A stretch of DNA of 64,000 nt from an uncultured Gammaproteobacteria bacterium (GCA_964434235.1 CAYSUN010000001.1:18574-82573), one strand, 5' to 3'. Shown: positions 13,016 to 54,704, numbered from the stretch's first letter. Translations and numbers: made by a program. The notes: generated by a model from the letters alone, not told the origin.

Positions 13016-13027
13016 CTTCGAAAATAA

Positions 13028-14549: not shown

Positions 14550-14570
14550 ACAATAAACATAGATGGACTT

Positions 14571-15278: not shown

Positions 15279-15281
15279 AGT

Positions 15282-16016: not shown

Positions 16017-16025
16017 AAATAAAAT

Positions 16026-16706: not shown

Positions 16707-16712
16707 TTAATA

Positions 16713-17648
16713 ATGAAAATAAAAATAAAATATATGAATTATTCTTTTTTCCGAATAATAAAATTTGCAATTCAAGATTTCTATAGAAATTTTTGGTTAT
16801 CAATAGTAACTATTACAGTTCTAATTTTAGCTTTATTTTCAGTTAATATTTTAGTTTCCTTAAATGCTATTTCTGATAGTGTTATTAGTTCAGTCAAGGA
16901 CAAGGTTGATGTAAGTGTGTTTTTTCAGGCTGAAACGCCACAAGCTGTGATTGATAATTTTCAGCAAAAAATTGTGGCAATGGATGAAGTAGACAGTGTT
17001 TTGTTTATTGGTAAAAATGAAGCTTTGGATAGTTTTAAGGAAAAACATAGCGATGATCCAGCTTTGATGGAAGCGCTTAAGGAAGTCGAACAAAATCCTT
17101 TGTTAGATGCTTTAATTGTTAAGGCTACAGACACTGCTGGTTATAATAAAATATTATCAACTTTGAATTTACCAGAAAATCAAGAAGTCATTAAATATCA
17201 AAATTATACTGATCATGAAAAGATTATTAACCGAGTTTCTGTTTTGAGTGATAAAATTAGAAAATTCAGTCTTTCTTTGACAGTGATATTCTCAATTATT
17301 GCGATATTAATAGTTTTTAATGCAATTAGAGTCACAATCTATACTCATCGTGAAGAGATCGCAGTTATGCGCCTTGTGGGGGCTAGTAATTCATTTATTA
17401 GAGCGCCATTTTTGGTGGAAGGTATAATTTTTGCTCTTGTTTCTGTTTGTCTGGCTTCAATTGCTTTGTATGTTTGTTTTATTGCATTAACTCCATATTT
17501 AAGCGGTTTCCTTGAAACTTACAATTTTAGTTTAATTGGGTATTATCAAGCTAATTTTTGGCAAATTTTATTATCTCAGATTGGGGCAGTGATCCTTTTG
17601 AATATAGTAAGCGCGGGTGTGGCTATAGGTAAGCACCTTCGAGTTTAA
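16713..17648 (+). CDS. ftsX: cell-division permease-like protein FtsX
   Basis: TM1, large extracytoplasmic domain, three C-terminal TM helices; genomic context with ftsE. Confidence 0.8.
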   Translation: MKIKIKYMNYSFFRIIKFAIQDFYRNFWLSIVTITVLILALFSVNILVSLNAISDSVISSVKDKVDVSVFFQAETPQAVIDNFQQKIVAMDEVDSVLFIGKNEALDSFKEKHSDDPALMEALKEVEQNPLLDALIVKATDTAGYNKILSTLNLPENQEVIKYQNYTDHEKIINRVSVLSDKIRKFSLSLTVIFSIIAILIVFNAIRVTIYTHREEIAVMRLVGASNSFIRAPFLVEGIIFALVSVCLASIALYVCFIALTPYLSGFLETYNFSLIGYYQANFWQILLSQIGAVILLNIVSAGVAIGKHLRV

Positions 17649-23244: not shown

Positions 23245-25293
23245 ATGAATTTAGAGACCAAAATAAGCGAATTAACTAGAGTCGGCAAAACAACTGGCTC
23301 ACGATTAAAAAATCTCGGTTTGGAAACTGTGGAAGATTTGATTTTTTATTTTCCTTTTCGTTATGAGGATTACAGTATTATTAAATCAATCAACAGTTTA
23401 ATACCTGGTGAGCCGGTTACGGTTAAGGGTAAAATTCAACTAATTGCCAACCGGCGAAGTTGGCGCAAAAGAAAAATTATTACTGAGGCGTTAATTTCAG
23501 ATGAAACTGAAACAGTGAAAATTATTTGGTTTAATCAACCATTTTTAACAAAATCATTGAAAGTCGGAGATGAAGTTTTCATTTCAGGTAAATTAGACGA
23601 AGACCGATTGCAATTTGTTAGTCCAGATTATGAAAAAGTTCGAACAGAAAATATTCATACTGCTAGACTGGTGCCAGTTTATCATTTAACGCAAGGCGTA
23701 ACCCAAAAGCAACTTCGCTTTTTGCTTAGTCAATGTCGTTCAGTTATGCAAAGTTTGCCAGAATATGTGCCTCAAGATATTTTGCAAAAATATAAATTTT
23801 TAGATTTAAATTCAGCTTTGTCAAATATTCATTTCCCTGAAAACAAAAAAATTGCTGAGCAAGCTAAATTGCGTTTACAGTTTAATGAACTTTTTTTAAT
23901 TCAGTTGGCTATTCAAAAGGAAAAACAACTTTTGAAAGAAAGCAAAGCTTTGAAAATTAAATTTTTACAAAAACAAACTAAGGATTTTGTGGAATCTTTG
24001 CAATTTAAATTGACTGATGCGCAAAAAAAATGCTCTTGGGAAATTATTCAAGATTTAGAAAAAGATCGACCAATGAATCGTTTACTTGAAGGTGATGTTG
24101 GTTCTGGTAAAACAGTAGTTGTAACTCTTGGTATGTTGAACTGTATTTTGAACGGGTACAAAGTCGTATTGATGGCTCCGACAGAAATTTTAGCTGAGCA
24201 ACATTACCAGACTTTGCGCAAGTTTTTTGTTAAACAAAAATTTAATTGTGCATTATTTACAGGTAGCAAAAGAGAGATCAATGGGGAAAAAATTAGTAAG
24301 ATAAAAATTTTGGATATTTTAAAACAAGGTCAATTTGATCTTGTTATAGGCACTCAAGCTTTAATTCAGGCAGGCGTTGAAATAAAAGATTTAGGTTTGG
24401 TGGTGGTAGATGAACAGCATCGTTTTGGAGTGAGTCAAAGAAAGGCTTTGGTAAATAAGAGTCAAAAAAACGGCTATTTGCCTCATTTCCTTTCCATGAC
24501 AGCTACACCGATTCCTAGAACTTTAGTTTTAACTTTGTATGGTGATTTGGATTTGTCTATAATCAATCAAATGCCAGCGGGACGAAAACCAATTTCAACT
24601 AAAGTTGTTTATGAAGGCGACCGTCAAAAAGCGTATGACTTTATAGGCCAGGAAATTAGTCACGGTCGCCAAGTTTTTGTTATTTGTCCACTGATTGATC
24701 CTAGTGATAAGGCGGGAACTAAATCAGTTAAACAAGAATTTGAAAGATTAGATAAAGATATTTTTCCTGATTTGAAAATCGGACTAATGCATGGCAAATT
24801 AAAATCAATTGATAAACAGTTGATAATGCAAGAATTTGCTGAACATAAAATTGACATATTAGTTTCAACTTCAGTTATTGAAGTTGGTATTGATGTGCCC
24901 AATGCTTCCATTATGATGATTGAAGGTGCTGATCGATTTGGTTTGGCTCAATTGCATCAGTTTCGTGGACGGGTCGGACGAGGTGAACATCAATCTTATT
25001 GTTTTCTTTTTACTGATAATAATTCACCACTGACAAAAAAAAGATTAAAATATTTAGAACAGTGTAAAGATGGATTTAAACTAGCGGAAATGGATTTACA
25101 ACTTCGTGGACCTGGAGAAGTTTATGGCGTTCAACAATCAGGTTTGCCTGATTTAAGAATTGCCAGCTTAACAGATTTATCTTTAATTCAAAAAGCGCAA
25201 GAAGAAGCACGAATTTTATTACAAAATGGTAATTTAAGTCAAAATTTACAAGTCGTGGTTGATAAGCAAAAAATCAGTTTGCATTTTGAATAG
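23245..25293 (+). CDS. recG: ATP-dependent DNA helicase RecG
   Basis: Walker A GDVGSGKT, DEQH box (VVVDEQHRFGV), motif TATPIPRT, HQFRGRVGRG; RecG-type N-terminal wedge region; 682 aa. Confidence 0.85.
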   Translation: MNLETKISELTRVGKTTGSRLKNLGLETVEDLIFYFPFRYEDYSIIKSINSLIPGEPVTVKGKIQLIANRRSWRKRKIITEALISDETETVKIIWFNQPFLTKSLKVGDEVFISGKLDEDRLQFVSPDYEKVRTENIHTARLVPVYHLTQGVTQKQLRFLLSQCRSVMQSLPEYVPQDILQKYKFLDLNSALSNIHFPENKKIAEQAKLRLQFNELFLIQLAIQKEKQLLKESKALKIKFLQKQTKDFVESLQFKLTDAQKKCSWEIIQDLEKDRPMNRLLEGDVGSGKTVVVTLGMLNCILNGYKVVLMAPTEILAEQHYQTLRKFFVKQKFNCALFTGSKREINGEKISKIKILDILKQGQFDLVIGTQALIQAGVEIKDLGLVVVDEQHRFGVSQRKALVNKSQKNGYLPHFLSMTATPIPRTLVLTLYGDLDLSIINQMPAGRKPISTKVVYEGDRQKAYDFIGQEISHGRQVFVICPLIDPSDKAGTKSVKQEFERLDKDIFPDLKIGLMHGKLKSIDKQLIMQEFAEHKIDILVSTSVIEVGIDVPNASIMMIEGADRFGLAQLHQFRGRVGRGEHQSYCFLFTDNNSPLTKKRLKYLEQCKDGFKLAEMDLQLRGPGEVYGVQQSGLPDLRIASLTDLSLIQKAQEEARILLQNGNLSQNLQVVVDKQKISLHFE

Positions 25294-27488: not shown

Positions 27489-28655
27489 CTATTTCTTAAT
27501 TTTTTTTATAAAATAATAAAACGAACTTAAAATCGGAATATTTAGGGCAATTGTGAAAATTAATAATAGTAAGAGTATTATTAAGTCTGGGATGTTTTCG
27601 ACATTTAATTTAACCCATAGTGGTACAGTAATATTCGTTGCATAAAAAAGGTGAAGGTATGTTGGAATAAATATTACGGTAATAATAATTATTAAACTAT
27701 TTAGCTGACCTAAAAGTATTTTTGAAATATCTTTATCAACTATCGTTGATTTTAAATATTTTAGAAAATTGTTTTTATTTTTCTCAAACTTTTCCTCTAA
27801 TAAATTATAGGTTTTTTGCGAACTGTCAATTATAAAACCGATTGGTGCTAATGTTAATATAAGTAGAAAAATATTTTGTAATTTCAATTCTTGAATTAAA
27901 GAAAAATATAAACTGGTCGAGATATTGCTTATTACACCGAGTGGCTTATACAGTATTATTACAATAGAAAAAACAATGACTGAAAAGAAAATAGTTAAGA
28001 TATTACCAAGAAATGAAAATATTGATTTTTTGTTCAGCCCAAAATTTATGAAAGTATAAATACCAATAAAAATAATTGCACTGAACAAACTTAATAACAA
28101 AATATTTGAATTGTTAATTGCCATCGGTAGTGTATACGTGAAAAGTATTGTCAAAATAATGATACTACTAGCAAAAATTTTCCAACTTTTTTTATATAAC
28201 AAAACAAATAATAAAAATAATATTATTAAAATAGCTTTCAGAATAATGGGGGAGCGGTATTTACTAATTATTTGATAATTTTCAAATGAGTAATTATTTT
28301 TTGTTAAAATTAATTTGTCTCTAGTTTGAAATCGTTCAAAAACAGAATCAACTTGATTTTTATAATGGCTTACTCCAATGAGTTGATTTTTGTTTTCTCC
28401 AGATTTTATTTTGACTTCAAATTCTTGAAAAATAGCTAAGGGGTCTAAATATTCATCATATTCTTCAAAGTTTTCTGCGATAATTTCAGTTATTTCTCCA
28501 ATGAAATAAGTTTCTTTTAGTTGAGTATCATTAGCAATATTTTGCTCTTCAAGTATATTTTCAGAATCTACCGTTGTTTCTTGAGCTATGGCAACATGGC
28601 CAATAAAAAAGAATATTAACAAAATAATGATTATTTTTGAGTACTTACTTTTCAT
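27489..28655 (-). CDS. hypothetical polytopic membrane protein (signal peptide, extracytoplasmic domain, ~7 TM)
   Basis: Hydrophobicity pattern only. Confidence 0.45.
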   Translation of the reverse strand: MKSKYSKIIIILLIFFFIGHVAIAQETTVDSENILEEQNIANDTQLKETYFIGEITEIIAENFEEYDEYLDPLAIFQEFEVKIKSGENKNQLIGVSHYKNQVDSVFERFQTRDKLILTKNNYSFENYQIISKYRSPIILKAILIILFLLFVLLYKKSWKIFASSIIILTILFTYTLPMAINNSNILLLSLFSAIIFIGIYTFINFGLNKKSIFSFLGNILTIFFSVIVFSIVIILYKPLGVISNISTSLYFSLIQELKLQNIFLLILTLAPIGFIIDSSQKTYNLLEEKFEKNKNNFLKYLKSTIVDKDISKILLGQLNSLIIIITVIFIPTYLHLFYATNITVPLWVKLNVENIPDLIILLLLLIFTIALNIPILSSFYYFIKKIKK

Positions 28656-28657: not shown

Positions 28658-29989
28658 TTATAATAAATTTAATAATTGATTAACTTCTGTAACTTGAATA
28701 GAATTATTTTGTTTTTTAGGAATTATAATATTTTTAAATCCTAATTTTTTAGCTTCCTGAACTCTTTTTTCTAAATTGATAACCGACCGAACTTCACCAC
28801 CAAGTCCAATTTCACCTATGGCAATAGTATCTTTGCTAATGGGTTTATTTCTGAAAGCTGAAATAATAGCGAGAGCAACAGCTAGATCAATAGCTGGTTC
28901 AGTTACTTTTAATCCGCCGACAATATTTAAATGAATATCTTGATTGTTTAGATTGATATTCGCTCTTTTGAATAAAACGGCTGAAAGCATTTGCAATCTA
29001 TTTTGATCGTAGCCCGACGTTTTTCTTTGCGGATAACCAAAAATAGTTGGAGTGACCAGAGCTTGGACTTCAATCAGAAAAGCTCGAGTACCTTCCATAA
29101 AACAGGAAGTTACAGTTCCAGGTGTGATATTTGTTTCATTGGAAAGGAATGCTTTTGTTGGATCTTTTACTTCAGCTAAACCTTTGTCCGTCATTTCAAA
29201 AACCCCGATTTCATTAGTTGAGCCAAAACGATTTTTACTACTTCGAAGTAATCGGAAACCGTGTAATTTATCTCCTTCCAAGTATAAAACTGTGTCAACT
29301 AAATGTTCTAATGTTTTTGGGCCAGCCACCGAGCCATCTTTAGTAACGTGCCCAGTAATTAAAATTGGGATGTTGTTTTGTTTGGCTGTTTGCAAAAGTT
29401 TAACGGTGCAAGCTCGTATTTGGCTAACATTGCCTGATTCAGAATCAACATCTGATGAATAAACAGTTTGAATTGAGTCAATTATTGCGATGCTGGGGTT
29501 GATTGTTTTTATAGCCACGCAAACTTCTTCAATGTTTGTTTCACTTAAAAATTTTAAATTGATAGGTTTATAACCCAGTCGATCAATTCGAAGTTTTATT
29601 TGGCTGGCAGACTCTTCACCTGAAATATAAAGCAGGGGAGCGTTTTGATTTTCTAGACTTTGCAATATTTGTAGAACTAGAGTTGATTTTCCGATACCTG
29701 GTTCGCCACCGAGAAGAGTAATGCTTCCTTTGACAATTCCACCACCAAAGATTTGATCAATTTCTACTAAATTGGTTTTCATTCTTTCAAAGTGTTCAAG
29801 TTTAATGTCGTTAAAATCAGTTAATTTCCCAGAGTCAAATTGTAGTTCTTGTTTTTTTGATTTTTTGATTTTTTGATTTACTGACTCTTGAATTGTTCCC
29901 CAAGCACCACACTCAAGACAGCGTCCTGACCACTTAGGAAACTGTGCATCGCATTTTGAACAGGTGAAGATTGTTTTAATTTGAGCCAT
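28658..29989 (-). CDS. radA: DNA repair protein RadA/Sms
   Basis: N-terminal zinc finger CSKCDAQFPKWSGRCLECGAW, Walker A GGEPGIGKSTL, RadA signature KNRFG, Lon-protease-like C-terminal domain. Confidence 0.9.
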   Translation of the reverse strand: MAQIKTIFTCSKCDAQFPKWSGRCLECGAWGTIQESVNQKIKKSKKQELQFDSGKLTDFNDIKLEHFERMKTNLVEIDQIFGGGIVKGSITLLGGEPGIGKSTLVLQILQSLENQNAPLLYISGEESASQIKLRIDRLGYKPINLKFLSETNIEEVCVAIKTINPSIAIIDSIQTVYSSDVDSESGNVSQIRACTVKLLQTAKQNNIPILITGHVTKDGSVAGPKTLEHLVDTVLYLEGDKLHGFRLLRSSKNRFGSTNEIGVFEMTDKGLAEVKDPTKAFLSNETNITPGTVTSCFMEGTRAFLIEVQALVTPTIFGYPQRKTSGYDQNRLQMLSAVLFKRANINLNNQDIHLNIVGGLKVTEPAIDLAVALAIISAFRNKPISKDTIAIGEIGLGGEVRSVINLEKRVQEAKKLGFKNIIIPKKQNNSIQVTEVNQLLNLL

Positions 29990-30003: not shown

Positions 30004-31377
30004 TTATTTAATGGTAATTGGACAAGTCCCTGCACCAGGCACAGCTTGAAATAATTTCTCAGCATGGTATTTGTCAATTATTCTTTGTTTTCCAGCTTTT
30101 CGAACTGAAACAGCTTTACCAGCCCCAAACATTTCACCACCAATCGCAGCTTCTTCTAGATTTTTATAATTACCACCAGTCCATTTGCTATTTTGATAAC
30201 CGCCATCACCAGCAGTACATTCTGACTTACCTTTATCAAAAGCATTTTCTTTGCAACGTTTGACAATTAATTGTTTCCAAGATTCAGTTAGTCCTTTTTC
30301 AATATTTGTACCACCATTACAACCTCCAAGTTTAAGTGTGTTACCAAGACTGGCCGTTCCACTGTTGTGATAAAGATAAAGTAAAGTGGCAATATCAGAA
30401 TCACTTAATTTACTAAGATCGCCTTTACAAATAGTATTAATCTTTTTTATGGCGAGCATAGTCATGCCAGTTACACCCATTACCTGAACTTTATCTAAAA
30501 TAAGGCGTGAATCATTTTTTAGTATAGGACTAGTTGATACCCCGATTTGGTTTAAGTAATAGGCAGTATCTGCCCCGCCTGTCCAGCCTTTCATTGACGC
30601 TGTCCAAGTGTCATATTTGAATTGGTACAAACCTTTGAAACAAGCACAATTTACTAATCCAGGTCTAAAGCCAGATTCATGTTCACACATTCCCACTAGA
30701 ATATTATAATTGAAGTTACCGCAAGCAGCAAAGTCTTTCATGAGTTGAACTAGTGAGTTTTTGTCTGGATGAGGATCACTATTTGTTGGCACACCGCAGT
30801 ATTCAAGAACTGAGTTTTTAGGGGCAGGACATTTACCACCTGATCCACCACTTATCCAGCCTTCTCCATCTGCTTTTTCCGCATAAACTGGATCTATGTT
30901 AAAATCCAGTGGAATGTTTTCAATTAAAGTGGTTTTTAGATTGGTTAAATTTGGATTAATTGTGTTCAAAATAATGTTTGTAATTAATAAAATTACTAAA
31001 CCTAATAAAGCGCTGGTCATCATTGATTTTGATTTTTGTATACCTGCTGGATAAGCACCAGCTAAAACATAAAAAAGTCCACCAATCATAAAGACAAGAG
31101 TCGCCACAATAGAGCCCAAAATTATACCATAATTGTAAATACCAACTAGATATTCAACAATCCAAGGTGATGAAGAAAATTTTCCTCCTTCAACCATAAC
31201 TTTTGATAAAGATGGCATGTTGGGAATTGGAATGCTGATTTTAGGTTGAATGGCTTCTTTTGCTTTACTTTCTGATGTGGTTGTTGCGCTTTGTGCAGAA
31301 ACAGAAGGAACCAAACAAATGCTAACGAGAAGACAGGTTAGGCTAAATAAGAATAAAATTTTAGTTTTATTTCTCAT
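30004..31377 (-). CDS. secreted/membrane-anchored protein with lytic-transglycosylase (SLT)-like domain; N-terminal signal plus two-helix module shared with the next gene
   Basis: SLT-like motif GMCEHESGFRPGLVNCACFKGLYQFKYDTW (ES..GLMQ-type); N-terminus is signal peptide + WIVEYLVGIYNYGIILGSIVATLVFMIGGLFYVLAG + ..ALLGLVILLITNIILNTINPNL. Confidence 0.5.
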   Translation of the reverse strand: MRNKTKILFLFSLTCLLVSICLVPSVSAQSATTTSESKAKEAIQPKISIPIPNMPSLSKVMVEGGKFSSSPWIVEYLVGIYNYGIILGSIVATLVFMIGGLFYVLAGAYPAGIQKSKSMMTSALLGLVILLITNIILNTINPNLTNLKTTLIENIPLDFNIDPVYAEKADGEGWISGGSGGKCPAPKNSVLEYCGVPTNSDPHPDKNSLVQLMKDFAACGNFNYNILVGMCEHESGFRPGLVNCACFKGLYQFKYDTWTASMKGWTGGADTAYYLNQIGVSTSPILKNDSRLILDKVQVMGVTGMTMLAIKKINTICKGDLSKLSDSDIATLLYLYHNSGTASLGNTLKLGGCNGGTNIEKGLTESWKQLIVKRCKENAFDKGKSECTAGDGGYQNSKWTGGNYKNLEEAAIGGEMFGAGKAVSVRKAGKQRIIDKYHAEKLFQAVPGAGTCPITIK

Positions 31378-31418
31378 GTGTTCTGATAATAATAAAATTT
31401 ATAAACTTTGTTTTTGAA

Positions 31419-33770
31419 CTATTTTGCAATATAACCTTTGTTGGTTTTGTACCAGTTAGATGTTCCAGCTCCACACTGTTTTAAATCTACAACGCCAGTA
31501 ATTGCTTCAGATGGGGTAAGTGCTTTTTCACACGTTCCACCAGGTGTGAATGTTCCCTTCAGATTTACGCAGGTTTCAGGACTTGTTTTTATGCCGTTTT
31601 CGGGATTTGTCAATCCTAGGGAATAAGCAATTAAATCGCTTTTGCAACAACCAGATTCGCCTGCATCTAAATTATCTTCGGGGAAAAACACAATGTTTGC
31701 AACTGTTCCTGATCCTCCGCCATGGACACATTGATTTGTTGATCCTGCATTTGATGAAATTGGATTTAAGTTTTCGATGGTGCCATTTCCATTACTAACA
31801 CATTTACTCATTAAATCATTTTGCTTATATGTGTCTTTGTTGGCTTTAGGACAACCTGTTGCAGCACATTCTGATGACCAGCCTGTGTTTGATTCAACTA
31901 TTTTTCCTTCGCCTAGTGAAATAAATACATGTTGAAGTGTGCCACCGTTACATCGGAACATTGCTCCGGCCGGAAGTAGACTTGGATATTTTGATGCAGC
32001 CCCACCACCAACAATAAGAGCTTTCCATCTTAAGTCAGTTAGTTGAGGTCCTAAGGCTCCAATACAAGTAGCGCCTGGTAGTTTGCAACCAGAGTTTTTT
32101 AAAATTCTTGAAGATATTTTAGCACAACTATTTGGCGCTGTGAGGAAGTCTTTTGCATTAGCCCAAGCAGTACCAACATTTTTTATGTCAGTTGAAGTGC
32201 ATTTCAAAAGTGAATTGTAGCAACCTGTACCACTATTGAATTTAGAGTAATCTGGAAATTTGGATGCATCCGCTTCTGGACATTCCCCAGTTGAAGGATC
32301 AAAGTTGGGTGGGTTGTAAGCGCTATCATCTGCCGTTGTTAAATTAGCTGCTATTCCATATTCACCTGGTTTATAAAAATAGGTAGAATCTGCTATTCCG
32401 CAATCATCCCAGATGTCTTGAGCAGAGGCTGTTTTTAGACCTCGGTGAACTGGATCATTTATACCATATACTCCTCCAGAATAACTGGTTAAAACTATGT
32501 AATGACCATTTTTAGTGAATTTGCACTTTGGATGATCTCTTCCAATTGACCTAATTATAACTGGAATTCCTTTTGAAAGTAATTCAATAAGTTTTGGGTC
32601 ATCTTTTGGTCTGTTCCAAACAGATTCTGATTTTAGTCCGTTTGCAGTAGCCAATTCTGCCATCCCTTTGTCATCAAAACCACAACAAGTCTGAGCTTTG
32701 CTTCCAGAAACAGAGCCAGCTGGTGCGCGGATGCCATTTAGCTGTATCCATTTAGCAACGTCAGGTGGAGTAACACTAATTCCATAATAGTTCAAAACCA
32801 TTGCAGATGAAGTTAGTCCACAGCCAGAAGATTGAATCACGTTAGTGTTGGGAGTGCCACCAGTGCTATTTGTCATTTTTGAATTTTTACAAAATTCTAC
32901 AAAATTATTTGCGCCCCATGGGTTTTTACTACACCACGCTGAATCTTTGACATTTGGATTGTTACAAAGTTCAGAAACTTTGTAAGTCTTTTCTAGCCAT
33001 TCACAGTAATTTACATCAGTTTTAGGATATTTGTCATTTTTAAATTTACAAGAAAAAATACCAAATTGAGGTGGGTTAGAAATGCCTGGCATTTCCATTT
33101 TGTAACCCGCAGTACCACAGGCGACCGCATATTTACCTAGGCCAGGAACTTCAACCTTACCATTTTGATAACTGCAATTATTGCCAGTTAGAGGATAACA
33201 TGCCCATTGTATGTCAGTCTGAGCATAGTAAACAACTTTTCCTGTGCCAGTTGGGGTGTTTGTTACTGGAGTATTTGCAAATTCACTTTCATTGATTACT
33301 CCATCTGAGACAGATTCAATTAGCGTTGTTTTTAGATTTACTAGATTGGGGTTTATTGTATTCAAAATAATGTTTGTGCACATGAGAATAACCAGACCGA
33401 TTAAAGCACCAGATATCATTGATTTAGCTTTTTGTATTCCTGATGGATTTGCGCCTGCCAGAACATATAATAATCCACCAATCATCAAAATCAGTGTAGC
33501 CACGATTCCTCCAAAAATTATTCCATAGTTATAAATTGCAACTAAATAATCAACGATCCAATTGGTTACATATGTTTGACCAGGAGTGAATTTAATGCTA
33601 TCCCAGGCATCTAGACCAGGAATTTCTACACGAACTTTCGGAGCTGGTAGTTCAACTTCTTCCTGCACTTTTTGACTGTATGTGAGATGAAGAGGTATTA
33701 AAATGAAAACAAAAATAATAATTGTTGAAAGAATGATTTTTTTATAATATTTTTTTTTTGTTTTTGTCAT
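31419..33770 (-). CDS. large Cys-rich secreted protein with peptidase-C39-like (papain-fold) domain; shares N-terminal two-helix module with 30004-31377
   Basis: SSGCGLTSSAMVLNYYG resembles the C39/C39_2 catalytic-Cys motif; the N-terminal ~110 aa are paralogous to the downstream gene. Confidence 0.5.
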   Translation of the reverse strand: MTKTKKKYYKKIILSTIIIFVFILIPLHLTYSQKVQEEVELPAPKVRVEIPGLDAWDSIKFTPGQTYVTNWIVDYLVAIYNYGIIFGGIVATLILMIGGLLYVLAGANPSGIQKAKSMISGALIGLVILMCTNIILNTINPNLVNLKTTLIESVSDGVINESEFANTPVTNTPTGTGKVVYYAQTDIQWACYPLTGNNCSYQNGKVEVPGLGKYAVACGTAGYKMEMPGISNPPQFGIFSCKFKNDKYPKTDVNYCEWLEKTYKVSELCNNPNVKDSAWCSKNPWGANNFVEFCKNSKMTNSTGGTPNTNVIQSSGCGLTSSAMVLNYYGISVTPPDVAKWIQLNGIRAPAGSVSGSKAQTCCGFDDKGMAELATANGLKSESVWNRPKDDPKLIELLSKGIPVIIRSIGRDHPKCKFTKNGHYIVLTSYSGGVYGINDPVHRGLKTASAQDIWDDCGIADSTYFYKPGEYGIAANLTTADDSAYNPPNFDPSTGECPEADASKFPDYSKFNSGTGCYNSLLKCTSTDIKNVGTAWANAKDFLTAPNSCAKISSRILKNSGCKLPGATCIGALGPQLTDLRWKALIVGGGAASKYPSLLPAGAMFRCNGGTLQHVFISLGEGKIVESNTGWSSECAATGCPKANKDTYKQNDLMSKCVSNGNGTIENLNPISSNAGSTNQCVHGGGSGTVANIVFFPEDNLDAGESGCCKSDLIAYSLGLTNPENGIKTSPETCVNLKGTFTPGGTCEKALTPSEAITGVVDLKQCGAGTSNWYKTNKGYIAK

Positions 33771-33782
33771 TTTTGTTTTAAA

Positions 33783-35072
33783 TTATTTTAGGTTTATCAA
33801 ATGTAACCCTTGTGTTGTTTTGTCAGTGTAATACAATTTTGAACCATCTTTTGAAACTTGCATTTGTTCAATTGAATATCCAACCTCTGGTTCAGCAACA
33901 AAACTTTTAACACCTGTTTGTAAATTTATTTTGTATATATAATCAGGAATGTCATCAGCTAAAGCAGGAACTAACCCAGCGCCATAAGGTAGTTCTTTTG
34001 GTACTGCACAGTACATTTCAGTGTTTGAAGAAAAAGTACATTTGTCAGCCCAAGTGTTCAGTTTTAGACTGTAATTGTTTTGACCAATATTATTTCCTGA
34101 AGCATCCACTACATATAAAAGTGGCTTGTGATCAGAAAATTGATTTTGAACACTATAAACTAATTTGTTTCCATCTGGAGACCATTCTATTTGTGGGTCA
34201 TAACCATTAAGGTTTATTGATTTGAAATTTTCTTCATATTGACCCAAGAAAAATAGTTCACTTGTCGAAGCAGATTTGGCAGTTTTGTAACTAGCAATTA
34301 TTTTGTTATTTGGTGACCATTCAGTAATAAAATTATTTGCTTCATCACCCATGTATTCAATGTATTTTTGATTTGAACCATCAGCATTAGCCGTTCCTAA
34401 GAATTTATATTCTGGATTTGGGTTATCATCTTTAAAAACAATTTGACTGCCAGTATTATTAAAACCAAAGTCAGTCCAATCTTTTGGTAAACTTATTTGT
34501 TTGTCGTTTTCAAAGTTGTACAGAATATTTGAGCCATCGGGAAATTCCAAAATTGCTTTTTCTGAGTTTGGTGCCCATGTTATATTCTCAACATTTTTAT
34601 AAGTTCTATTTGAGTATAATTCATGATCTCCATAAAATGTTATTTTTTGAAAAAGTCCAGTGTTCTTATTGTAAACTATAGTGTCATTTCCATCAGGAGT
34701 TAATGCTAGACTATCAACAGTTTGAAGACTTAAATTTGTTATGGCAGTAATACCCCCTTTCGCATATGAGTCAGCAGTTGTTTCGTAATCAATTTCTGGA
34801 GTTATTTTAATAACAGCGTTAAAATCACTTTCCTCCGCGACTTCAGCTTGTGGAACTTCAGATTCTCCTGGAGTGAAAATTCCAGGTTGCTCACCTTGAT
34901 TAGCTCCTTCTAATTGTTTGATATCAATCTCTGTTTTTTCACCAACTTCTTCATCAATGACGATTGATTTGAAAAATAATTGGTAAATACCTAGTCCAAT
35001 TAAAATACACAAAAGAATAAACGCAAATATTAAAGCAATCTTTTTCCAGTCAAAGTTTTGTAAATTGAACAT
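33783..35072 (-). CDS. membrane-anchored beta-propeller protein (TolB/PD40-like repeats)
   Basis: N-terminal TM; repeated W/SP(D/N)G(N/S)K(I/L)(V/A)(Y/F) motifs (TPDGNDTIVYN, APNSEKAILEF, WSPNNKIIASY, WSPDGNKLVYS, SKDGSKLYYT). Confidence 0.55.
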   Translation of the reverse strand: MFNLQNFDWKKIALIFAFILLCILIGLGIYQLFFKSIVIDEEVGEKTEIDIKQLEGANQGEQPGIFTPGESEVPQAEVAEESDFNAVIKITPEIDYETTADSYAKGGITAITNLSLQTVDSLALTPDGNDTIVYNKNTGLFQKITFYGDHELYSNRTYKNVENITWAPNSEKAILEFPDGSNILYNFENDKQISLPKDWTDFGFNNTGSQIVFKDDNPNPEYKFLGTANADGSNQKYIEYMGDEANNFITEWSPNNKIIASYKTAKSASTSELFFLGQYEENFKSINLNGYDPQIEWSPDGNKLVYSVQNQFSDHKPLLYVVDASGNNIGQNNYSLKLNTWADKCTFSSNTEMYCAVPKELPYGAGLVPALADDIPDYIYKINLQTGVKSFVAEPEVGYSIEQMQVSKDGSKLYYTDKTTQGLHLINLK

Positions 35073-35096
35073 AATTTTATCTTTATTTTATGAATT

Positions 35097-36680
35097 TTAG
35101 AATAAACCTGAAATGTCGCCACTTAAAGCTTCTGCTAAAACTACTCCAGCTAAAACTGCAGCCACAATAATAATTATTACAGGTAGAATTGGACCGACAC
35201 AAAATGCACAAGTAGAGCAACACATTCGGCAACCTTTGATTATTTTTATAATAACTTTAAATACTTTTCCTATTTTGCCACCAAATTTAGTAAACCACTG
35301 GGCAATACTACAACTAAATTTAAATTGTTTAGTTGGTAAACAACTGTTGAATTTTTTCATTGGATTCATTCTATCTATACAATCAGTAGCGTTTTTTCTG
35401 GCCATTGCTTTCATTTTATTGGCTTTTTGATTTGCCATTTCTTTGGCTTTTTGTTTAACGAGGTCAGCATTTTCCTTCATTGATCTTTGTCTTATGGCGT
35501 TTAACTGTAGTTGCATCTGTTTTGCCTTTTGTTGCATGGCTTTGGCTTGGGCAATCGGGGATTGTCTTTGGTTTGACTCGTTTTTGTTTTCTGATCCGCT
35601 TGGTTTGTCTTCTGGGGAAGGTGGTTCATCTTGATTTTCGCTGTAGGGCGTAGTGCCCTCTTTTTCGGATTGTTTTTGTTTGCGAAAATCTTGTAAACTT
35701 TGATTTTGATCTTGTTGTCTTTTCTGATCAATGGCCCGTTGTCTATCAAGTTGTCTTTTTATAGATCTTTCATGATCAGCATCACCAGTTGTTCTACCGC
35801 CAAGTGGTTCAGCATACCTAGGTTTTGCTGGTGGAGTAGGTTGTTGTTGCTGTTGTTGTTCAGAAGCTCTTTGCTGATTTACCGGGGGTGCAGAAAGATC
35901 TGGGATGTTGCCGTCAGCCATTTGAGTGGCAGCTTGATTTTGTTTGTTTTTTTCTTGATCTGAAAATTCGCCTTCAGGATTTGTTGAGGTGGATTCTGGT
36001 TCTGTTGGGTTATTGGTTTCCTGTTTTTTTGCTTCTTCATCCCCATTCTTTCCATCTTCAGATTTTAAATTGTCAGATTCTGGGTTGTCATTTTTTGGTT
36101 CTTCTGTTTGATTGTTGTTGTCAGGTTTTCTATTGTCAACAAAAGCTGGACTTGGATTACTGGCGTCGTTGTTATTATTCTTGCTATCGTCGCCGTTACC
36201 TTCTTCATCTTCTTTACTGTCGTCGTCATCATTCTGATTTTTTGAAGTTTTTTTCTTGGCTTCGGCAAGCGCTTGGCCATCAGCTGTTTTTTTGCCTCCA
36301 GCGGTTGGCTTACCAGATTCTTGTCCTGGTATTTCGGGTTTCTTTTTTTTGGTTTTTTTCTTTTTCCTAGTATTTTCGTTACTGCTTGTAGTAGTTCGAT
36401 TGTCTTGGTTCATTAAACCATTTTCAGCAGGATCTTTAGTCTCAATTTTTTGCCTTGATGATTGGGTTTGTGGAGTTAGATTTATTTCGATCTCTTTTTC
36501 TTCAGGTTCAATTTTACTGGTTATTGAGATTTCTTCTTGTTCTTCAGTTGGCGGGTTAGATTGATTATTTGATTTATTCGGAGTAATTGTTTGATTATCT
36601 AAAACAATATTAGCATTACTCGGTAATGATTTTAGCTCTATACTTTCATTTTTATCCTTTGTTTTATTATCGTCTGCCAT
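35097..36680 (-). CDS. highly disordered, charged (K/E/D/N/Q/P-rich) protein with Cys-rich C-terminal tail anchor
   Basis: ~480 aa of low-complexity charged sequence (poly-Q, KKKKTKKKK, NNNN runs), then CRMCCSTCAFCVGPILPVIIIIVAAVLAGVVLAEAL at the C-terminus. Confidence 0.6.
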   Translation of the reverse strand: MADDNKTKDKNESIELKSLPSNANIVLDNQTITPNKSNNQSNPPTEEQEEISITSKIEPEEKEIEINLTPQTQSSRQKIETKDPAENGLMNQDNRTTTSSNENTRKKKKTKKKKPEIPGQESGKPTAGGKKTADGQALAEAKKKTSKNQNDDDDSKEDEEGNGDDSKNNNNDASNPSPAFVDNRKPDNNNQTEEPKNDNPESDNLKSEDGKNGDEEAKKQETNNPTEPESTSTNPEGEFSDQEKNKQNQAATQMADGNIPDLSAPPVNQQRASEQQQQQQPTPPAKPRYAEPLGGRTTGDADHERSIKRQLDRQRAIDQKRQQDQNQSLQDFRKQKQSEKEGTTPYSENQDEPPSPEDKPSGSENKNESNQRQSPIAQAKAMQQKAKQMQLQLNAIRQRSMKENADLVKQKAKEMANQKANKMKAMARKNATDCIDRMNPMKKFNSCLPTKQFKFSCSIAQWFTKFGGKIGKVFKVIIKIIKGCRMCCSTCAFCVGPILPVIIIIVAAVLAGVVLAEALSGDISGLF

Positions 36681-36699: not shown

Positions 36700-37012
36700 T
36701 AGATCGAAATTACATGAAAAATATTAATATCTAAAATTAACAGATATTATTTTGAAATACGGTCTTTGTTTTTGTATTTTCTGTTAATATTGTATAATAA
36801 TTATACTTTAGCGTCAAAAGCAAAAGTGGGTAAATACACAAGAAATCAAAAAACCAAGAAAACAAGAAAGCAAGAAAGTATGAAAGCAAATACTTAGCCT
36901 TTGTAAAGTATCTTAAGCTACCCTTTGTTTCTTAGTTTCTTATTTCTTTATTTCTTTATTTCTTTTTAACTCACTATTCATTACTTATTTACTTAACACT
37001 TAACTTAACTCT
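36700..37012. repeat. divergent promoter region rich in CAAGAAA/TTTCTTG and TACTTAACACTTAAC word repeats
   Basis: Same repeat vocabulary as the 9.3-10.0 kb block. Confidence 0.6.
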
Positions 37013-38125
37013 ATGAAAAAATTTATTTTGGTTTTGATTTTATGTTTGTTGGCTATTCCAGCTGTTACTTTAGCGGGTGGATCTTCAGATGAAAATGTTT
37101 TTATTCCAAAAGAACAAGTAATTTCTGATAATTATTTTGTTATTGGTAATACAGTTGATATTTCAGGTACATTAGAAAAAGATGCTTACATTATCGGACA
37201 AAATGTCGTAATTAGTGGAACTATTAAAGGTGATTTGATTGGCGTTGCTAACAGTTTAAGAATTGACGGAGTAGTTGAGGGTAATGTTCGATTTTTAGCT
37301 TCTGAAATGGATATCAAGGGTGAAGTTTATAAAAATATTACAGTTGCTTCTGGTAATTTAGTTGTTTTAGGCAAATTAAATCAAGATTTAATTGGAGCAG
37401 TTGGTTCTGCTGATTTACAAGGCGAAATGTTGGGGAATGTAAATCTTGTGGCTAGCAAAGTAAATGTGGATAAAAATATTGCTGGTAATTTATCATTACG
37501 TTTAGATGAAAATGGGACAATGTCTTTTGCTGAAGAAGTGGAAATTGGAGGAAATTTAGCTTATTCTCCAATTAAAAAGGAAGTTGAGGGTTTATCTGGA
37601 GTAACGGTTGTAGGAGAAACGAAGTTATTGAAAATAAATAAAAGTCTTAATATTAACAAAGCGTATAATTATATTTATTTATATAGTCGAATTGCTTATT
37701 TTTTATCTTTGTTGATGATAGTTTTAGTAATGTTAAGTTTCATGAAAAAATTTACTGTTCAGTTATCTTCACTTTTAGCCAAAGAACCACTTAGATGTTT
37801 TAATAAAGGTTTTTGGTTTGTAATTTTAGTTCCGCTTGTTTGTTTGCTCTTGTTGTTCACTTTGGTTGGTTTGCCATTGGCCGGGATACTTATGGCTTTG
37901 TATATTATAGTTTTTTATATTAGTAAAATTTTTGTTGGGTTAGCAGTTGGTATGGTTGTCTTGAAACAAGATTTTACAAAAGCAAAGTTAATTTGGCCAG
38001 CAGTGTTAGGTGTATTTTTAGTTGTAATTGGAGTTTCAATACCATTTATTGGTTTTCTGGTTAACTTATTGCTAACTTCCGCTGGGTTTGGAGCGCTTTA
38101 TATAATTTTGAAAAGGGAAAAGTAA
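37013..38125 (+). CDS. membrane protein with N-terminal signal, bactofilin-like beta-helical repeat region, and C-terminal multi-TM domain
   Basis: Repetitive G-x-hydrophobic pattern (GNTVDISGTLEKDAYIIGQNVVISGTIKGDLIGVANSLRIDGVVEGNV..) typical of DUF583/bactofilin-type beta-helix; ~5 TM helices in the C-terminal 150 aa. Confidence 0.4.
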   Translation: MKKFILVLILCLLAIPAVTLAGGSSDENVFIPKEQVISDNYFVIGNTVDISGTLEKDAYIIGQNVVISGTIKGDLIGVANSLRIDGVVEGNVRFLASEMDIKGEVYKNITVASGNLVVLGKLNQDLIGAVGSADLQGEMLGNVNLVASKVNVDKNIAGNLSLRLDENGTMSFAEEVEIGGNLAYSPIKKEVEGLSGVTVVGETKLLKINKSLNINKAYNYIYLYSRIAYFLSLLMIVLVMLSFMKKFTVQLSSLLAKEPLRCFNKGFWFVILVPLVCLLLLFTLVGLPLAGILMALYIIVFYISKIFVGLAVGMVVLKQDFTKAKLIWPAVLGVFLVVIGVSIPFIGFLVNLLLTSAGFGALYIILKREK

Positions 38126-48311: not shown

Positions 48312-49100
48312 ATGTTTTTCTATTTATTACTATTTATTATTGGAGCTTGTGTGGGAAGTTTTTTGAATGTTGTTATTCTTCGCTTGCCACAAAAAAAGTC
48401 AATTGTTAAAGAAAGTTCGCACTGCCCAAATTGCCAAAAGAAATTGAAAGCTTATGATTTGATTCCAGTTATTAGTTTTTTTCTTTTGGGAGCAAAGTGC
48501 CGGAATTGTCAAAAGAAAATTTCTTGGCAATATCCAATTGTTGAATTAGTTTGTGCTGGTTTATTTATTTTTTTGGGCTATCATTATCAAATTTTGACTA
48601 ATTTTGCTAATCCAATTTTTTATCGGGATTTAGTTTTTGTTTCTACTTTGTTAATAATATTTGTGACTGATTTAAAATATTATTTGATTTTTGATGCGGT
48701 GACAGTTCCTCTTATGATTTTTGCTTTTTTGATTAATTTTTTCATACTAAGTAATTCAAATAACTATTGGTCAGTTTTTATAAATTTAATTGTGTCGGCT
48801 GTTATTGGCGGTGGTTTCTTTTTACTTCAATACATTGTGTCCAAAGGTAAATGGATTGGTGGTGGAGATATCCGTTTGGGTTTTTTAATGGGATTTATGC
48901 TCGGCTGGCCAATGATTTTAGTTGCTTTAGTTATCGCCTATTTAGTAGGAGCAATTATCAGTATATTTTTAGTAATTGGTAAAAAGAAAAAAATGAAAAG
49001 TGAAGTTCCTTTTGGTGTGTTTCTCAGTTTCGCTACATTTGTAGTTTTGATTTGGGGTAACCAGATTTTGAATTGGTATTTAACGCAATTGGGGATTTAA
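48312..49100 (+). CDS. pilD: prepilin peptidase (A24 family, PilD-like)
   Basis: N-terminal tetra-Cys CPNC..CRNC zinc motif, catalytic Asp contexts (FVTDLKYYLIFD; GGGDIRLGF), 6-8 TM. Confidence 0.85.
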   Translation: MFFYLLLFIIGACVGSFLNVVILRLPQKKSIVKESSHCPNCQKKLKAYDLIPVISFFLLGAKCRNCQKKISWQYPIVELVCAGLFIFLGYHYQILTNFANPIFYRDLVFVSTLLIIFVTDLKYYLIFDAVTVPLMIFAFLINFFILSNSNNYWSVFINLIVSAVIGGGFFLLQYIVSKGKWIGGGDIRLGFLMGFMLGWPMILVALVIAYLVGAIISIFLVIGKKKKMKSEVPFGVFLSFATFVVLIWGNQILNWYLTQLGI

Positions 49101-49365
49101 AGTGTTGAGTGAAAAAAAGTTAAAAGGCTTGCCCTGAACTTAACGTCTTATAGCGTTATAGTTCGGGGTAAAAGTTAAAAGTAAGTGTTAAGCCTGCCTG
49201 CCGGCAGGCAGGTATTAAGTAATAAATTTTTCTTGTTACTCGTTACTTGAATCCTTCTTTTCCTTGTTTTCTTGTTTTTATGTTTTATTGATTTCTTGTT
49301 TTAGTGGTTAAGTGTTAAAATGATTTCTTGATTTGTTGTTTTCTTGTTTTCTTGATTAAAAATGT
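49101..49365. repeat. inverted copy of the 9.3-10.0 kb repeat unit plus the collapsed palindrome CCTGCCTGCCGGCAGGCAGG
   Basis: 49232-49315 is nearly exactly the reverse complement of 9345-9421; palindrome at 49193-49212. Confidence 0.8.
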
Positions 49366-50513: not shown

Positions 50514-50517
50514 TAGT

Positions 50518-54702: not shown

Positions 54703-54704
54703 TT

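Follow-up and report, generated by a model that had tools for sequence, protein, structure and literature searches.

The minus strand of the window studied here, a 64-kb stretch of DNA, carries a compact run of genes, two of whose products resemble anchored cell-wall hydrolases, and its plus strand carries the core of a type IV secretion system (T4SS). This raises the question of whether the two belong together, and which wall the enzymes would act upon. The host of the operon is an ABY1-type Patescibacterium (CPR, ultrasmall) whose nearest relatives are labelled Kuenenbacteria or Falkowbacteria. Much of bacterial diversity belongs to the Patescibacteria, which live attached to other bacterial cells. 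In the sole genetically tractable species, the Patescibacterial T4SS and VirB2-like pilins are essential (PMC10633639, PMC12857230).

Organization of the operon

The four minus-strand reading frames that an earlier note had recognized between 36680 and 30004 are all present, and the operon runs on into radA, as that note had also proposed. The genes and the promoter-like site ahead of them are as follows:

36789-36817, minus strand, promoter-like site TTGACG-17-TACAAT from a consensus scan, in the 332-nt intergenic stretch ahead of gene 1
36680-35097, minus strand, gene 1, ORF of 527 aa
35072-33783, minus strand, gene 2, ORF of 429 aa
33770-31419, minus strand, gene 3, ORF of 783 aa
31377-30004, minus strand, gene 4, ORF of 457 aa
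28658-29989, minus strand, radA, co-directional and 14 nt past gene 4
27489-28655, minus strand, YibE/F-like membrane protein gene, 2 nt past radA

The spacers within the operon are 24 nt (genes 1 and 2), 12 nt (genes 2 and 3), and 41 nt (genes 3 and 4). A sequence scan found no terminator-like site on the minus strand between 36680 and 26711, and radA and the YibE/F-like gene are apparently, from direction and spacing, the downstream part of the gene 1-4 transcription unit; we infer that all six genes are co-transcribed. Promoter-like matches are frequent in this AT-rich window (64 found, 47 expected), so the site upstream of gene 1 is weak evidence. No clear Shine-Dalgarno motif precedes any operon gene, and Rfam at gathering thresholds places no RNA element within or upstream of the operon, its only hits being three tRNAs elsewhere. 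A PHROGs search with all four operon proteins gave no match, and they thus belong to no phage-lysin family; NCBIfam returned nothing for genes 1, 3, and 4. The earlier impression that none of the proteins clearly belongs to a named family is not borne out by profile searching, which detects C39_2, T4SS_pilin, and PD40.

Composition and hydrophobicity of the gene 1 product agree with its earlier description as a 527-aa, highly charged, low-complexity protein with a Cys-rich C-terminal transmembrane (TM) segment. Residues 1-480 are charged and rich in K, N, Q, E, S, D, and P; the sole hydrophobic segment, the C-terminal TM, spans residues 484-527, with five Cys at 484-494, and a short conserved motif (..AEPLGGRTTGDA..KRQLDRQRAIDQKR) lies ahead of it. 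The protein has no Pfam match either, and because it lacks a signal peptide its long N-terminal region is probably cytoplasmic. In relatives, counterparts of 253, 335, and 574 aa occupy this slot; they share the motif, and their TM tail contains CCxxCC.

The gene 2 product has a single N-terminal TM segment (aa 6-40) and one PD40 repeat that passes the Pfam threshold (24.7 bits, cut-off 20.9), which bears out that much of its description as a TM-anchored PD40/TolB-like propeller; the TolB resemblance is weak (TIGR02800, E 1.6e-6, 27 bits, far under the 343-bit cut-off). Its homologs give faint Tricorn/PD40 matches, and a sequence and profile search of the PDB gave no match to gene 2. Beyond the anchor, the sequence provisionally suggests an extracytoplasmic beta-propeller of the TolB/PD40/Tricorn type.

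Pilin-like hairpins and their predicted enzymatic cargo

Genes 3 and 4 had been taken for two paralogous hydrolases. The paralogy holds for the N-terminal hairpin, where the two proteins are 58% identical over aa ~30-155; the enzymatic parts are unrelated, and whole-length paralogy is rejected. As judged from sequence profiles, the common N-terminal ~125 residues are a signal peptide followed by a two-helix VirB2-like pilin hairpin (Pfam T4SS_pilin, PF18895). The domains of the two proteins are:

33306-33641, minus strand, gene 3 T4SS_pilin-like domain, aa ~44-155, TM segments 72-109 and 116-141 with a short basic loop
32451-32834, minus strand, gene 3 Peptidase_C39_2 (PF13529, clan CA), aa 313-440, Pfam E 1.5e-16
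31881-32195, minus strand, gene 3 predicted second papain-like (CHAP/NlpC-P60-like) domain, aa ~526-630
30913-31245, minus strand, gene 4 T4SS_pilin-like hairpin, aa ~45-155, TM segments 77-113 and 117-142
30058-30765, minus strand, gene 4 SLT/GH23-like domain, aa ~205-440, all-alpha lysozyme-like fold in the model

Both window proteins score under the PF18895 cut-off of 26.6 bits (gene 3, 25.9; gene 4, 16.6). The family nevertheless matches 13 of 13 close homologs, with best E-values of 7e-9 (gene 3 family, 8/8) and 7e-7, and three same-slot orthologs exceed the cut-off (L004, 27.5 bits; L012, 30.8 bits; P0129, 32.5 bits). A search with the hairpin domain gives 13,330 clusters at E<=1e-3, and PF18895 is present in 78 of the nearest 103 of these (best E 2.9e-71). 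The predicted hairpin structure superposes on a conjugation pilin, both AF2 models being of low confidence (pLDDT 60 and 51), and in gene 3 the domain carries a conserved PK(I/V)x(I/V)PIPxL motif. Scanning genome contigs with the gene 3 alignment gave only three loci, a number that reflects narrow pattern matching, not rarity. A pilin-like domain also occurs in L013, a protein encoded at an unrelated locus in the genome of a relative.

Each protein has the pilin layout of signal peptide, two hydrophobic helices, and short K-rich loop, shared with VirB2-like pilins (PF18895 T4SS_pilin, PF04956 TrbC) such as those of Southlakia (SEML1_0014-0019) and TM7x. In size and location, however, they are unlike pilins: the Southlakia pilins SEML1_0017-0019 are stand-alone proteins of ~126-138 aa within the T4SS cluster, whereas the proteins of 783 and 457 aa described here have enzymatic C-termini and are encoded outside the cluster, 20.7 kb from virB4. 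Two tandem, sequence-divergent copies constitute a 'VirB2 array' by the criteria of PMC12102498, and genes 3 and 4 would count as one. A full-text literature search, with most subscription journals outside its reach, found no description of pilin-hydrolase fusions.

The gene 3 protein contains 30 Cys and is composed of signal peptide, pilin hairpin, Cys-rich linker, Peptidase_C39_2, a CHAP/NlpC-P60-like domain, and a Cys-rich tail. Its earlier description as a Cys-rich protein with a C39-like motif is well founded, since CGLTSSAMVLNYYG lies inside the C39_2 domain. With 61.6 bits this domain exceeds its cut-off of 24, and it has the catalytic Cys and His; C317 does not vary across the family alignment, and H423 (GHY/F) and D439 (DP) appear conserved in all full-length homologs, as judged by eye without a count. 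Searched against the PDB, the gene 3 family profile finds 8z4n, the pseudomurein endoisopeptidase PeiR (E 9e-6), and 3erv, a C39-like peptidase. PeiR is the nearest solved structure by sequence, and its His-containing strand aligns with that of gene 3. PeiW, PeiP, and PeiR are archaeal-virus cysteine peptidases that cut cell-wall peptide cross-links in pseudomurein; the similarity of gene 3 to PeiR is distant, however, and the substrate of gene 3 is presumably bacterial murein.

Residues 450-783 of gene 3 have no Pfam match at E<=1, CHAP and NLPC_P60 included. A low-confidence model and the alignment place C549 at a helix start and H614 on a beta-strand, with E626 also conserved, and on this basis the region appears to hold a second Cys/His domain like CHAP/NlpC-P60 in its papain-like fold. 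The earlier note had missed this domain.

Gene 4 encodes a signal peptide, the VirB2-like hairpin, a flexible linker of ~60 aa, and a domain that, from motifs, profiles, and model, is a divergent SLT (GH23) lytic transglycosylase. In family-1 SLT domains the catalytic Glu lies in an E-S motif, followed by GLMQ-like and AYNAG-like motifs. Gene 4 has the counterparts E-S, GL(Y/F)Q, and (Y)HNSG, with E234-S235, G249-L250-(Y/F)-Q252, and H337-N338-S339-G340 invariant in five homologs; the lytic-transglycosylase-like motif noted previously (CEHESGF..GLYQF) is thus present with its catalytic-type residues. The protein itself has no Pfam SLT (PF01464) match, and two of five close homologs match SLT, at E 0.01 only. 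In a database of 149 sequences, the gene 4 domain profile matches P0053 (E 2.5e-15) and P0050 (E 1.2e-13), which score 39.8 and 34.9 bits for SLT, above the cut-off of 21.3, and align with the gene 4 motifs. In a low-confidence AF2 model the domain has an all-alpha, lysozyme-like fold, and searches of PDB sequences with the single sequence or the family profile gave chance TM matches only.

Conservation, cargo exchange, and the T4SS core

The tail-anchored disordered protein, the anchored propeller, one or more pilin fusions, and radA are kept together in all relatives for which the flanks were read. In relatives the propeller has 41-55% identity and without exception lies upstream of the fusions, next to them or separated by one or two small genes (L012, L014), and radA directly follows the fusions in all relatives examined, overlapping the last one in L012. 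What varies is the cargo, which at the same genomic slot is SLT, SLT plus GDSL esterase, Amidase_2, papain-like, Peptidase_M15_4, or pilin repeats; the papain-like cargo of one relative is homologous to the papain-like domain of gene 3. Where the cargo is enzymatic it is, going by its domains, always wall-directed. Among the nearest 103 pilin-domain clusters, too, the commonest fused Pfam domains are peptidoglycan hydrolases, in ~35-45 proteins (family counts overlap): SLT 9, Amidase_2 8, NLPC_P60 8, C39_2 5, M15_4 5, VanY 4, SLT_3 3, Amidase_5 3, M23 1, and Glucosaminidase 1. This exchange of cargo between relatives had gone unremarked in the earlier note.

The T4SS core had been placed ~20 kb from the operon, and the measured distance in the window is 20.7 kb. 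The core comprises:

289-9334, plus strand, T4SS core region, with three large unannotated membrane or surface proteins and the three genes below
6232-6690, plus strand, PrgI/VirB3-like
6725-7393, plus strand, TrsD/TraC-like
7427-9334, plus strand, VirB4 ATPase

The last two are not a split VirB4, because all relatives have a VirB4 of ~630 aa and a separate TraC/TrsD-like gene of ~226 aa. Core and operon keep their relative position in relatives, with the same gene order and 16-21 kb between them, and in four relatives the longest contigs for VirB4 and for the pilin-C39 protein are equally long. VirB4 is 73-88% identical in the relatives compared, so that this order is conserved among fairly close relatives and is weak evidence of coupling. 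No other pilin-domain ORF is present in the 64-kb window, the T4SS core included, and in the one relative examined there is none within 10 kb of VirB4.

The cell-wall and division genes murG, divIC, DPBB (RlpA-like), and ftsEX lie between core and operon, the region also contains comF and recG, and type IV pilus genes are found at 48-55 kb. ABY1 T4SS loci often include comF, recG, and radA (PMC12102498), and the window resembles them in having all three. The T4SS cluster of Southlakia epibionticum, whose T4SS genes are essential, has VirB2-like pilins and a lysozyme/cysteine-peptidase protein, SEML1_0006 (PMC10633639).

Possible roles of the operon

We give about an even chance to the reading that the operon encodes membrane-tethered, outward-facing peptidoglycan hydrolases that serve as a VirB1-like wall-breaching arm of the Patescibacterial T4SS or its pilus. 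The gene 3 and gene 4 proteins would be exported via their signal peptides, the two hydrophobic helices entering the membrane as a hairpin whose short basic loop faces the cytoplasm, which would leave the Cys-rich catalytic domains outside the cell membrane on flexible linkers. There gene 4 would cleave glycan strands as an SLT/GH23 lytic transglycosylase, and gene 3, with its C39_2/PeiR-like and CHAP/NlpC-P60-like cysteine-peptidase domains, would cleave peptide stems or cross-links; together they would supply the glycosidase and peptidase chemistry that monoderm T4SSs usually have in one VirB1-like protein. The pilin-type anchor may put the enzymes in the membrane pool of pilus subunits used by the VirB4/VirB6 machine, for which, or for whose pilus, they could open the wall locally. 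The propeller and the disordered gene 1 protein would be conserved partners, possibly a scaffold or regulator. We infer topology, enzymatic activity, and functional coupling to the T4SS from sequence, and the PF18895-like hairpin is, at that level, the only direct link of the operon to type IV secretion.

The proposed analogy with monoderm T4SS hydrolases is a reasonable one. PrgK (pCF10), TraG (pIP501), CwlT (ICEBs1), TcpG (pCW3), and Tn916 Orf14-type proteins pair a lytic-transglycosylase or muramidase domain with a papain-like (CHAP/NlpC-P60) peptidase, much like the SLT-like and C39_2/CHAP-like domains here; these VirB1-like enzymes are membrane-anchored with their catalytic domains outside (PMC12102498), the layout predicted for genes 3 and 4, and Tn916-like Orf16/Orf17 hydrolases are among the structural neighbours of the models. 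The resemblance is functional, however, and not one of membership. VirB1-like proteins, which are required for transfer, hold both domains in one polypeptide of the T4SS operon, behind a single N-terminal TM, whereas here the domains are divided between two genes that lie outside the T4SS cluster, and are anchored by signal peptide and VirB2-like hairpin; the extra C39_2/PeiR-like domain, the adjacent radA, the 16-21 kb to virB4, and the cargo exchange also set the operon apart. Within Patescibacterial T4SSs, the same kinds of wall-cutting domain occur in Southlakia SEML1_0006 (two lysozyme-like domains and a cysteine proteinase) and SEML1_0007 (M15B-like), in whose annotation rows, the basis of this comparison, PF18895 does not appear. 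Against a T4SS arm stand the location of the operon outside the cluster, the intervening murG, divIC, DPBB, and ftsEX, which suit a housekeeping role equally well, the very wide use of the pilin-like domain, the scores of the window proteins under the PF18895 and SLT cut-offs, and the low pLDDT of the models. A cargo of 300-640 residues would also be hard to fit into a VirB2-type filament.

If the operon does arm the T4SS, pilin-borne hydrolases with changing cargo would offer a concrete, testable idea of how a wall, the cell's own or its host's, is opened, and some reported 'VirB2 arrays' would be arrays of pilin-anchored enzymes. In practical terms, the locus yields a set of modular peptidoglycan hydrolases, and its five conserved genes (for a ClpB-like protein, the tail-anchored protein, the propeller, the pilin fusions, and radA) form a unit that is traceable across metagenomes.

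A somewhat unlikely alternative is that the enzymes are housekeeping autolysins that remodel the cell's own wall in growth, division, or daughter-cell separation, the hairpin being a convenient anchor with no present tie to secretion. So widespread a hairpin, found in thousands of protein clusters and in L013 at a locus unrelated to secretion, may be a mere membrane anchor, and the nearby wall and division genes and the distance from the virB4 cluster fit such a role. However, the anchor is specifically PF18895-like and not a generic TM hairpin, and autolysins are usually conserved, yet the cargo of this operon is replaced among relatives, as is more typical of enzymes that track a variable target.

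Cargo swapping also fits adaptation to the peptidoglycan chemotypes of hosts, and in a further account, which we consider improbable, the tethered hydrolases attack the wall of a host or neighbour and the co-transcribed radA serves to recombine released DNA that is taken up. The competence-induced fratricins CbpD and LytA of streptococci are a parallel for lysis combined with DNA uptake. The constant position of radA behind the last fusion, and comF, recG, and the type IV pilus genes in the region, would suit this account, and Patescibacteria, which lack nucleotide synthesis, take up DNA via type IV pili (PMC10633639; PMC12857230). On the other hand, linkers of ~35-60 residues would hold the enzymes close to the membrane of the cell that makes them, there is no evident immunity gene, unrelated genes are often combined in the operons of compact genomes, and loss of comEC has no effect on Southlakia viability (PMC12857230).

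It is similarly doubtful that the VirB2-like domain is a working pilin, with VirB4/VirB6 feeding hydrolase subunits into or onto the pilus tip or base to give an armed filament that digests the host wall; the cargo would then be a host-range cassette, and radA would process DNA gained through the breach.

It is very improbable that gene 3 is a peptide-processing protease, like the C39 peptidases that classically cut double-glycine bacteriocin leaders, in an operon that would export and process a peptide or surface protein instead of cutting peptidoglycan. No ABC transporter is fused to gene 3 or encoded beside it, C39_2 is the better match and has the cell-wall endoisopeptidase PeiR as nearest solved relative, the C39_2 domain is predicted to be extracytoplasmic, and the domains that accompany or replace it are without exception peptidoglycan hydrolases.

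Organization of the operon

The four minus-strand ORFs that the earlier note placed between 36680 and 30004 lie exactly there, in a window with a G+C content of about 33%, and encode products of 527, 429, 783, and 457 aa with spacers of 24, 12, and 41 nt.

35097-36680, minus strand: gene 1, tail-anchored protein
33783-35072, minus strand: gene 2, predicted beta-propeller
31419-33770, minus strand: gene 3, pilin-C39_2 fusion
30004-31377, minus strand: gene 4, pilin-SLT fusion

The operon also runs into radA as had been noted, with a gap of 14 nt after gene 4, and a YibE/F-like gene (assigned by Pfam) follows radA after 2 nt. A scan of 36680-26711 found no minus-strand terminator-like site, and the 332-nt gap 5' of gene 1 contains a sigma-70-like site, identified by consensus match only. 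On the other side of this gap (37013-38125, plus strand) a divergently transcribed gene encodes a 370-aa protein in which a signal peptide and a repeat region weakly resembling bactofilin are combined with a polytopic membrane domain at the C-terminus; its homologue in locus L004 of a related genome carries DUF8173, and it is a syntenic neighbour of the operon in L004, L006, and L008.

Searches of Pfam, NCBIfam, and PHROGs gave no family match for the product of gene 1. Residues 1-480 are rich in K, N, Q, E, S, D, and P, a signal peptide is lacking, and hydrophobicity is confined to the last 40 residues, which include a Cys cluster; the protein is thus predicted to be tail-anchored, with the disordered region presumably cytoplasmic. 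Counterparts at the same position in relatives (253, 335, and 574 aa) have in common a short motif (..PLGG.TTGDA..KR.LDRQ.AID..) and a CCxxCC TM tail. At 527 aa the protein is much longer than in most relatives (200-335 aa). Gene 2 encodes an N-terminal TM segment and a single PD40 repeat that passes the Pfam cut-off, and it matches TolB-like proteins weakly; its product is 41-55% identical to its counterparts in relatives, homologues give faint Tricorn/PD40 matches, and it is likely a membrane-anchored extracytoplasmic protein with a predicted beta-propeller fold.

Pilin-like hairpins and their predicted enzymatic cargos

Genes 3 and 4 had been described as paralogous, and this holds for residues ~30-155 (58% identity, E 2e-41, BLASTP), but the remainders of the two proteins are unrelated. 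The common region, which sits after a separate N-terminal signal peptide, consists of a conserved PK(I/V)x(I/V)PIPxL motif and then a pair of hydrophobic helices linked by a short basic loop, and from its sequence matches the VirB2-like T4SS_pilin domain (PF18895), a family typical of Patescibacteria. Gene 3 scores just under the PF18895 cut-off of 26.6 bits (25.9) and gene 4 well under it (16.6), all 13 of 13 close homologues match (best E values of 7e-9 and 7e-7), and proteins occupying the same position in other genomes pass it with 27.5, 30.8, and 32.5 bits. This pilin domain went unseen in the earlier note, and it strengthens the connection with a type IV secretion system (T4SS) proposed there.

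Outside the membrane both proteins are Cys-rich (30 Cys in gene 3 and 13 in gene 4), as expected of extracytoplasmic domains. Some orthologues (P0007, P0008, and P0010; L008 9176-12262) have long Cys-rich extensions, certain of them N-terminal, inserted after the signal peptide but ahead of the hairpin, reaching ~270 aa in length and built of repeated CxxxC-type modules, and the second fusion of L008 (12364-13968) has a C-terminal Cys-rich repeat tail, so extracellular domains are possible at both ends of the hairpin. One Dickkopf_N-like match was recorded in the Pfam census of pilin-domain proteins.

The enzyme classes guessed earlier for the two proteins, a C39-like peptidase and a lytic transglycosylase, are borne out, and the motifs quoted in support are present. 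In gene 3, Peptidase_C39_2 is matched at aa 313-440 (Pfam, E 1.5e-16); C317 is invariant, and His423 and Asp439 are conserved in an alignment judged by eye. The closest solved structure to the family profile is PeiR, a pseudomurein endoisopeptidase (8z4n, E 9e-6), with the C39-like peptidase 3erv next, such that the closest characterised relative of this domain is a cell-wall cross-link peptidase and not a bacteriocin-leader protease. A second Cys/His domain (aa ~526-630), overlooked previously, has no Pfam match; all sequences spanning the region conserve C549, H614, and E626. The AF2 model covering it is poor (pLDDT 51), and structure matches from weak models can be meaningless, yet the uniform list of matches together with the conserved residues makes a CHAP/NlpC-P60-like domain likely, if not certain.

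The cargo of gene 4 (aa ~205-440), that is the part C-terminal to the hairpin, has no Pfam match of its own. Its HES, GL(Y/F)QF, and (Y)HNSG motifs are invariant in five homologues, two of which match Pfam SLT weakly, and a profile of the domain matches two pilin fusions in a 149-sequence database, P0053 (E 2.5e-15) and P0050 (E 1.2e-13), both of which pass the Pfam SLT cut-off. On these grounds it is classified, by sequence, as a divergent SLT/GH23 lytic-transglycosylase domain.

Conservation of the module and exchange of cargo

Homologous loci were recovered by exact-protein look-ups and a genome scan from Kuenenbacteria-labelled and several other MAGs; the entries containing L006 and L008 are titled 'uncultured Gammaproteobacteria bacterium', probably a taxonomic mislabel for genomes with this clearly Patescibacterial locus. 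Mapping by tblastn shows the same order everywhere, with the tail-anchored protein, propeller, pilin-C39_2 fusion, second pilin fusion, and radA followed by recG, a 173-aa gene, ftsX/ftsE, and a DPBB gene. In most relatives a gene for a ClpB-like double-AAA+ protein, absent from the window, lies directly 5' of the tail-anchored protein gene, sometimes overlapping it:

L001, 3045-5444: ClpB-like gene
L004, 5259-7688: ClpB-like gene
L008, 3647-6067: ClpB-like gene
L012, 4065-6548: ClpB-like gene
L015, 540-2936: ClpB-like gene

Some relatives have LemA and M48 peptidase genes further upstream; the window has only the 332-nt intergenic gap at the ClpB-like position.

The cargo of the second fusion is SLT-like in the window and in L001/L007, Amidase_2 in L004/L006 (E 2.9e-12), and in L008 a papain-like homologue of the domain at the C-terminal end of gene 3 (E 2e-5, with the Cys and His aligned). 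When the pilin region of gene 3 was run with HMMER against 1.84 billion representatives, 13,330 clusters matched at E<=1e-3, 1,815 of them at E<=1e-10. The best 149 of the 13,330 have a median length of 419 aa, 137 of these 149 have more than 100 residues C-terminal to the pilin domain, and some carry 2-8 pilin repeats. In a Pfam census of the top 103 clusters, 78 match PF18895 and the fused domains are nearly all wall hydrolases.

Domains fused to the pilin domain in the top 103 clusters
SLT: 9
Amidase_2: 8
NLPC_P60: 8
C39_2: 5
M15_4: 5
VanY: 4
SLT_3: 3
Amidase_5: 3
GDSL esterase: 2
M23: 1
Glucosaminidase: 1

We examined the loci of six representatives, five of which occupy the same slot directly upstream of radA; a propeller and/or ClpB-like gene lies upstream in four of these five, and in the other, L011, the upstream gene is cut off. 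Slot contents include:

L011: pilin-M15_4 and a second pilin fusion without assigned cargo
L012: two short pilins and a three-repeat pilin protein
L014: pilin-SLT
L015: pilin-SLT-GDSL and another pilin fusion

SGNH/GDSL-type esterases acting on O-acetyl-peptidoglycan prepare it for lytic transglycosylases, and the SLT-GDSL pairing is therefore biochemically sensible. The exception is L013 (10001-12880, GCA_964590105.1 contig 2, the same genome as L008), which encodes a 959-aa protein with a pilin-like hairpin at aa 171-269 and no other Pfam domain, flanked by genes for pyruvate:ferredoxin-oxidoreductase subunits; the hairpin is thus used also away from the radA-linked module. The fixed slot and differing cargos amount to a conserved chassis with exchangeable wall-directed cargo. 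Wall hydrolases of this kind, anchored by a pilin domain, swapped as cargo, and encoded in a conserved module linked to radA, appear to occur widely in public data and, so far as our searches go, are undescribed: neither a full-text literature search nor PMC12102498, PMC10633639, and PMC12857230 yielded any mention of pilin domain-hydrolase fusions.

Relation to the T4SS and the wall target

The operon lies 20.7 kb from the T4SS core, in agreement with the distance reported earlier.

289-9334, plus strand: T4SS core of monoderm (MPF-FATA-like) type, with large proteins of 1049, 520, and 406 aa lacking a Pfam match
6232-6690, plus strand: PrgI/VirB3-like
6725-7393, plus strand: separate TrsD/TraC-like protein, 222 aa
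7427-9334, plus strand: VirB4, 635 aa
10530-11258: comF
11215-17648, plus strand: murG, bPH-domain protein, divIC, SurA/PPIase-like, DPBB_1/RlpA-like lytic-transglycosylase-fold protein, ftsE, ftsX
23245-25293: recG
28658-29989: radA

The 222-aa and 635-aa pair is not a split VirB4, since relatives show that the two-gene arrangement is normal. No relaxase, coupling protein, or stand-alone pilin was seen in the 64-kb window, and when all window ORFs of 40 aa or longer are scanned, genes 3 and 4 alone match pilin-domain HMMs, whether these are built from 13 close homologues or, more broadly, from 149 representatives. In one relative (L009) the broader HMM gives no match among ORFs lying up to 10 kb from VirB4, and each radA-linked module has one to three pilin-domain ORFs. 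L009 and L008 overlap at ftsX and the 173-aa gene, which puts that relative's operon ~16 kb from virB4, compared with 20.7 kb in the window, in the same gene order. In four relatives the longest contigs for VirB4 and for the pilin-C39 protein are equal in size (563,767, 364,661, 205,808, and 84,325 bp), from which we infer that the two share a contig.

Patescibacterial T4SSs resemble monoderm conjugation systems, unusually with VirB2-like pilins, often in arrays, and ABY1 T4SS loci commonly include comF, recG, and radA (PMC12102498), a pattern that the window fits, with all three between or beside the T4SS core and the operon. The search criteria of that study would count genes 3 and 4 simply as a two-gene VirB2 array. 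The Southlakia epibionticum T4SS cluster encodes small PF18895 pilins as well as a protein of lysozyme/cysteine-peptidase type and one that is M15B-like; its T4SS genes and pilins are essential (PMC10633639), as are the peptidase and lysozyme homologues downstream of virB4 (PMC12102498); a pilus in this monoderm system has been speculated upon (PMC12857230). The VirB1-like protein of monoderm T4SSs usually combines glycosidase and peptidase chemistries, whereas here the same two would be split over genes 3 and 4, which belong to no described T4SS hydrolase family and are not canonical pilins.

What we propose for the operon's function we infer from sequence, weak-to-moderate structure models, and synteny. 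With the signal peptide followed by the hairpin and the basic loop in the cytoplasm, the N-terminal stretch and the entire C-terminal cargo would be outside the membrane, the latter on linkers of ~35-60 disordered residues. Genes 3 and 4 are thus very probably outward-facing, membrane-tethered peptidoglycan hydrolases, with glycan strands predicted to be cut by gene 4 and peptide stems or cross-links by gene 3. The pilin-type anchor is the one feature tying them to the T4SS rather than to other envelope processes; it could put the enzymes in the membrane pool of pilus subunits extracted by the VirB4/VirB6 machine, and the wall would thereby be breached at the exit point of the machine or its filament. 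We consider the chances that they serve the T4SS or pilus to be evenly balanced.

The cell-wall and division genes between the T4SS and the operon (murG to ftsX), which are syntenic in relatives, provide a possible alternative context for the hydrolases. Whether the wall opened is the cell's own or the host's is much less certain: the replacement of cargos among relatives argues for a variable target, namely the host, and against pure housekeeping, but the shortness of the tether, the presence of division genes alongside, and the promiscuity with which the hairpin domain is used all speak against it. A competence-like programme coupling lysis to DNA uptake would account for the linkage to radA, which is tight and universal (always directly after the last pilin fusion, and overlapping it in L012), and is possible but speculative. 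The window also contains type IV pilus genes (48312-55277, plus strand), for a prepilin peptidase (A24) and three proteins carrying an N-terminal methylation motif (172, 210, and 190 aa), amid which lies a gene for a 1394-aa protein without a Pfam match that may be a giant minor-pilin-associated or adhesin protein.
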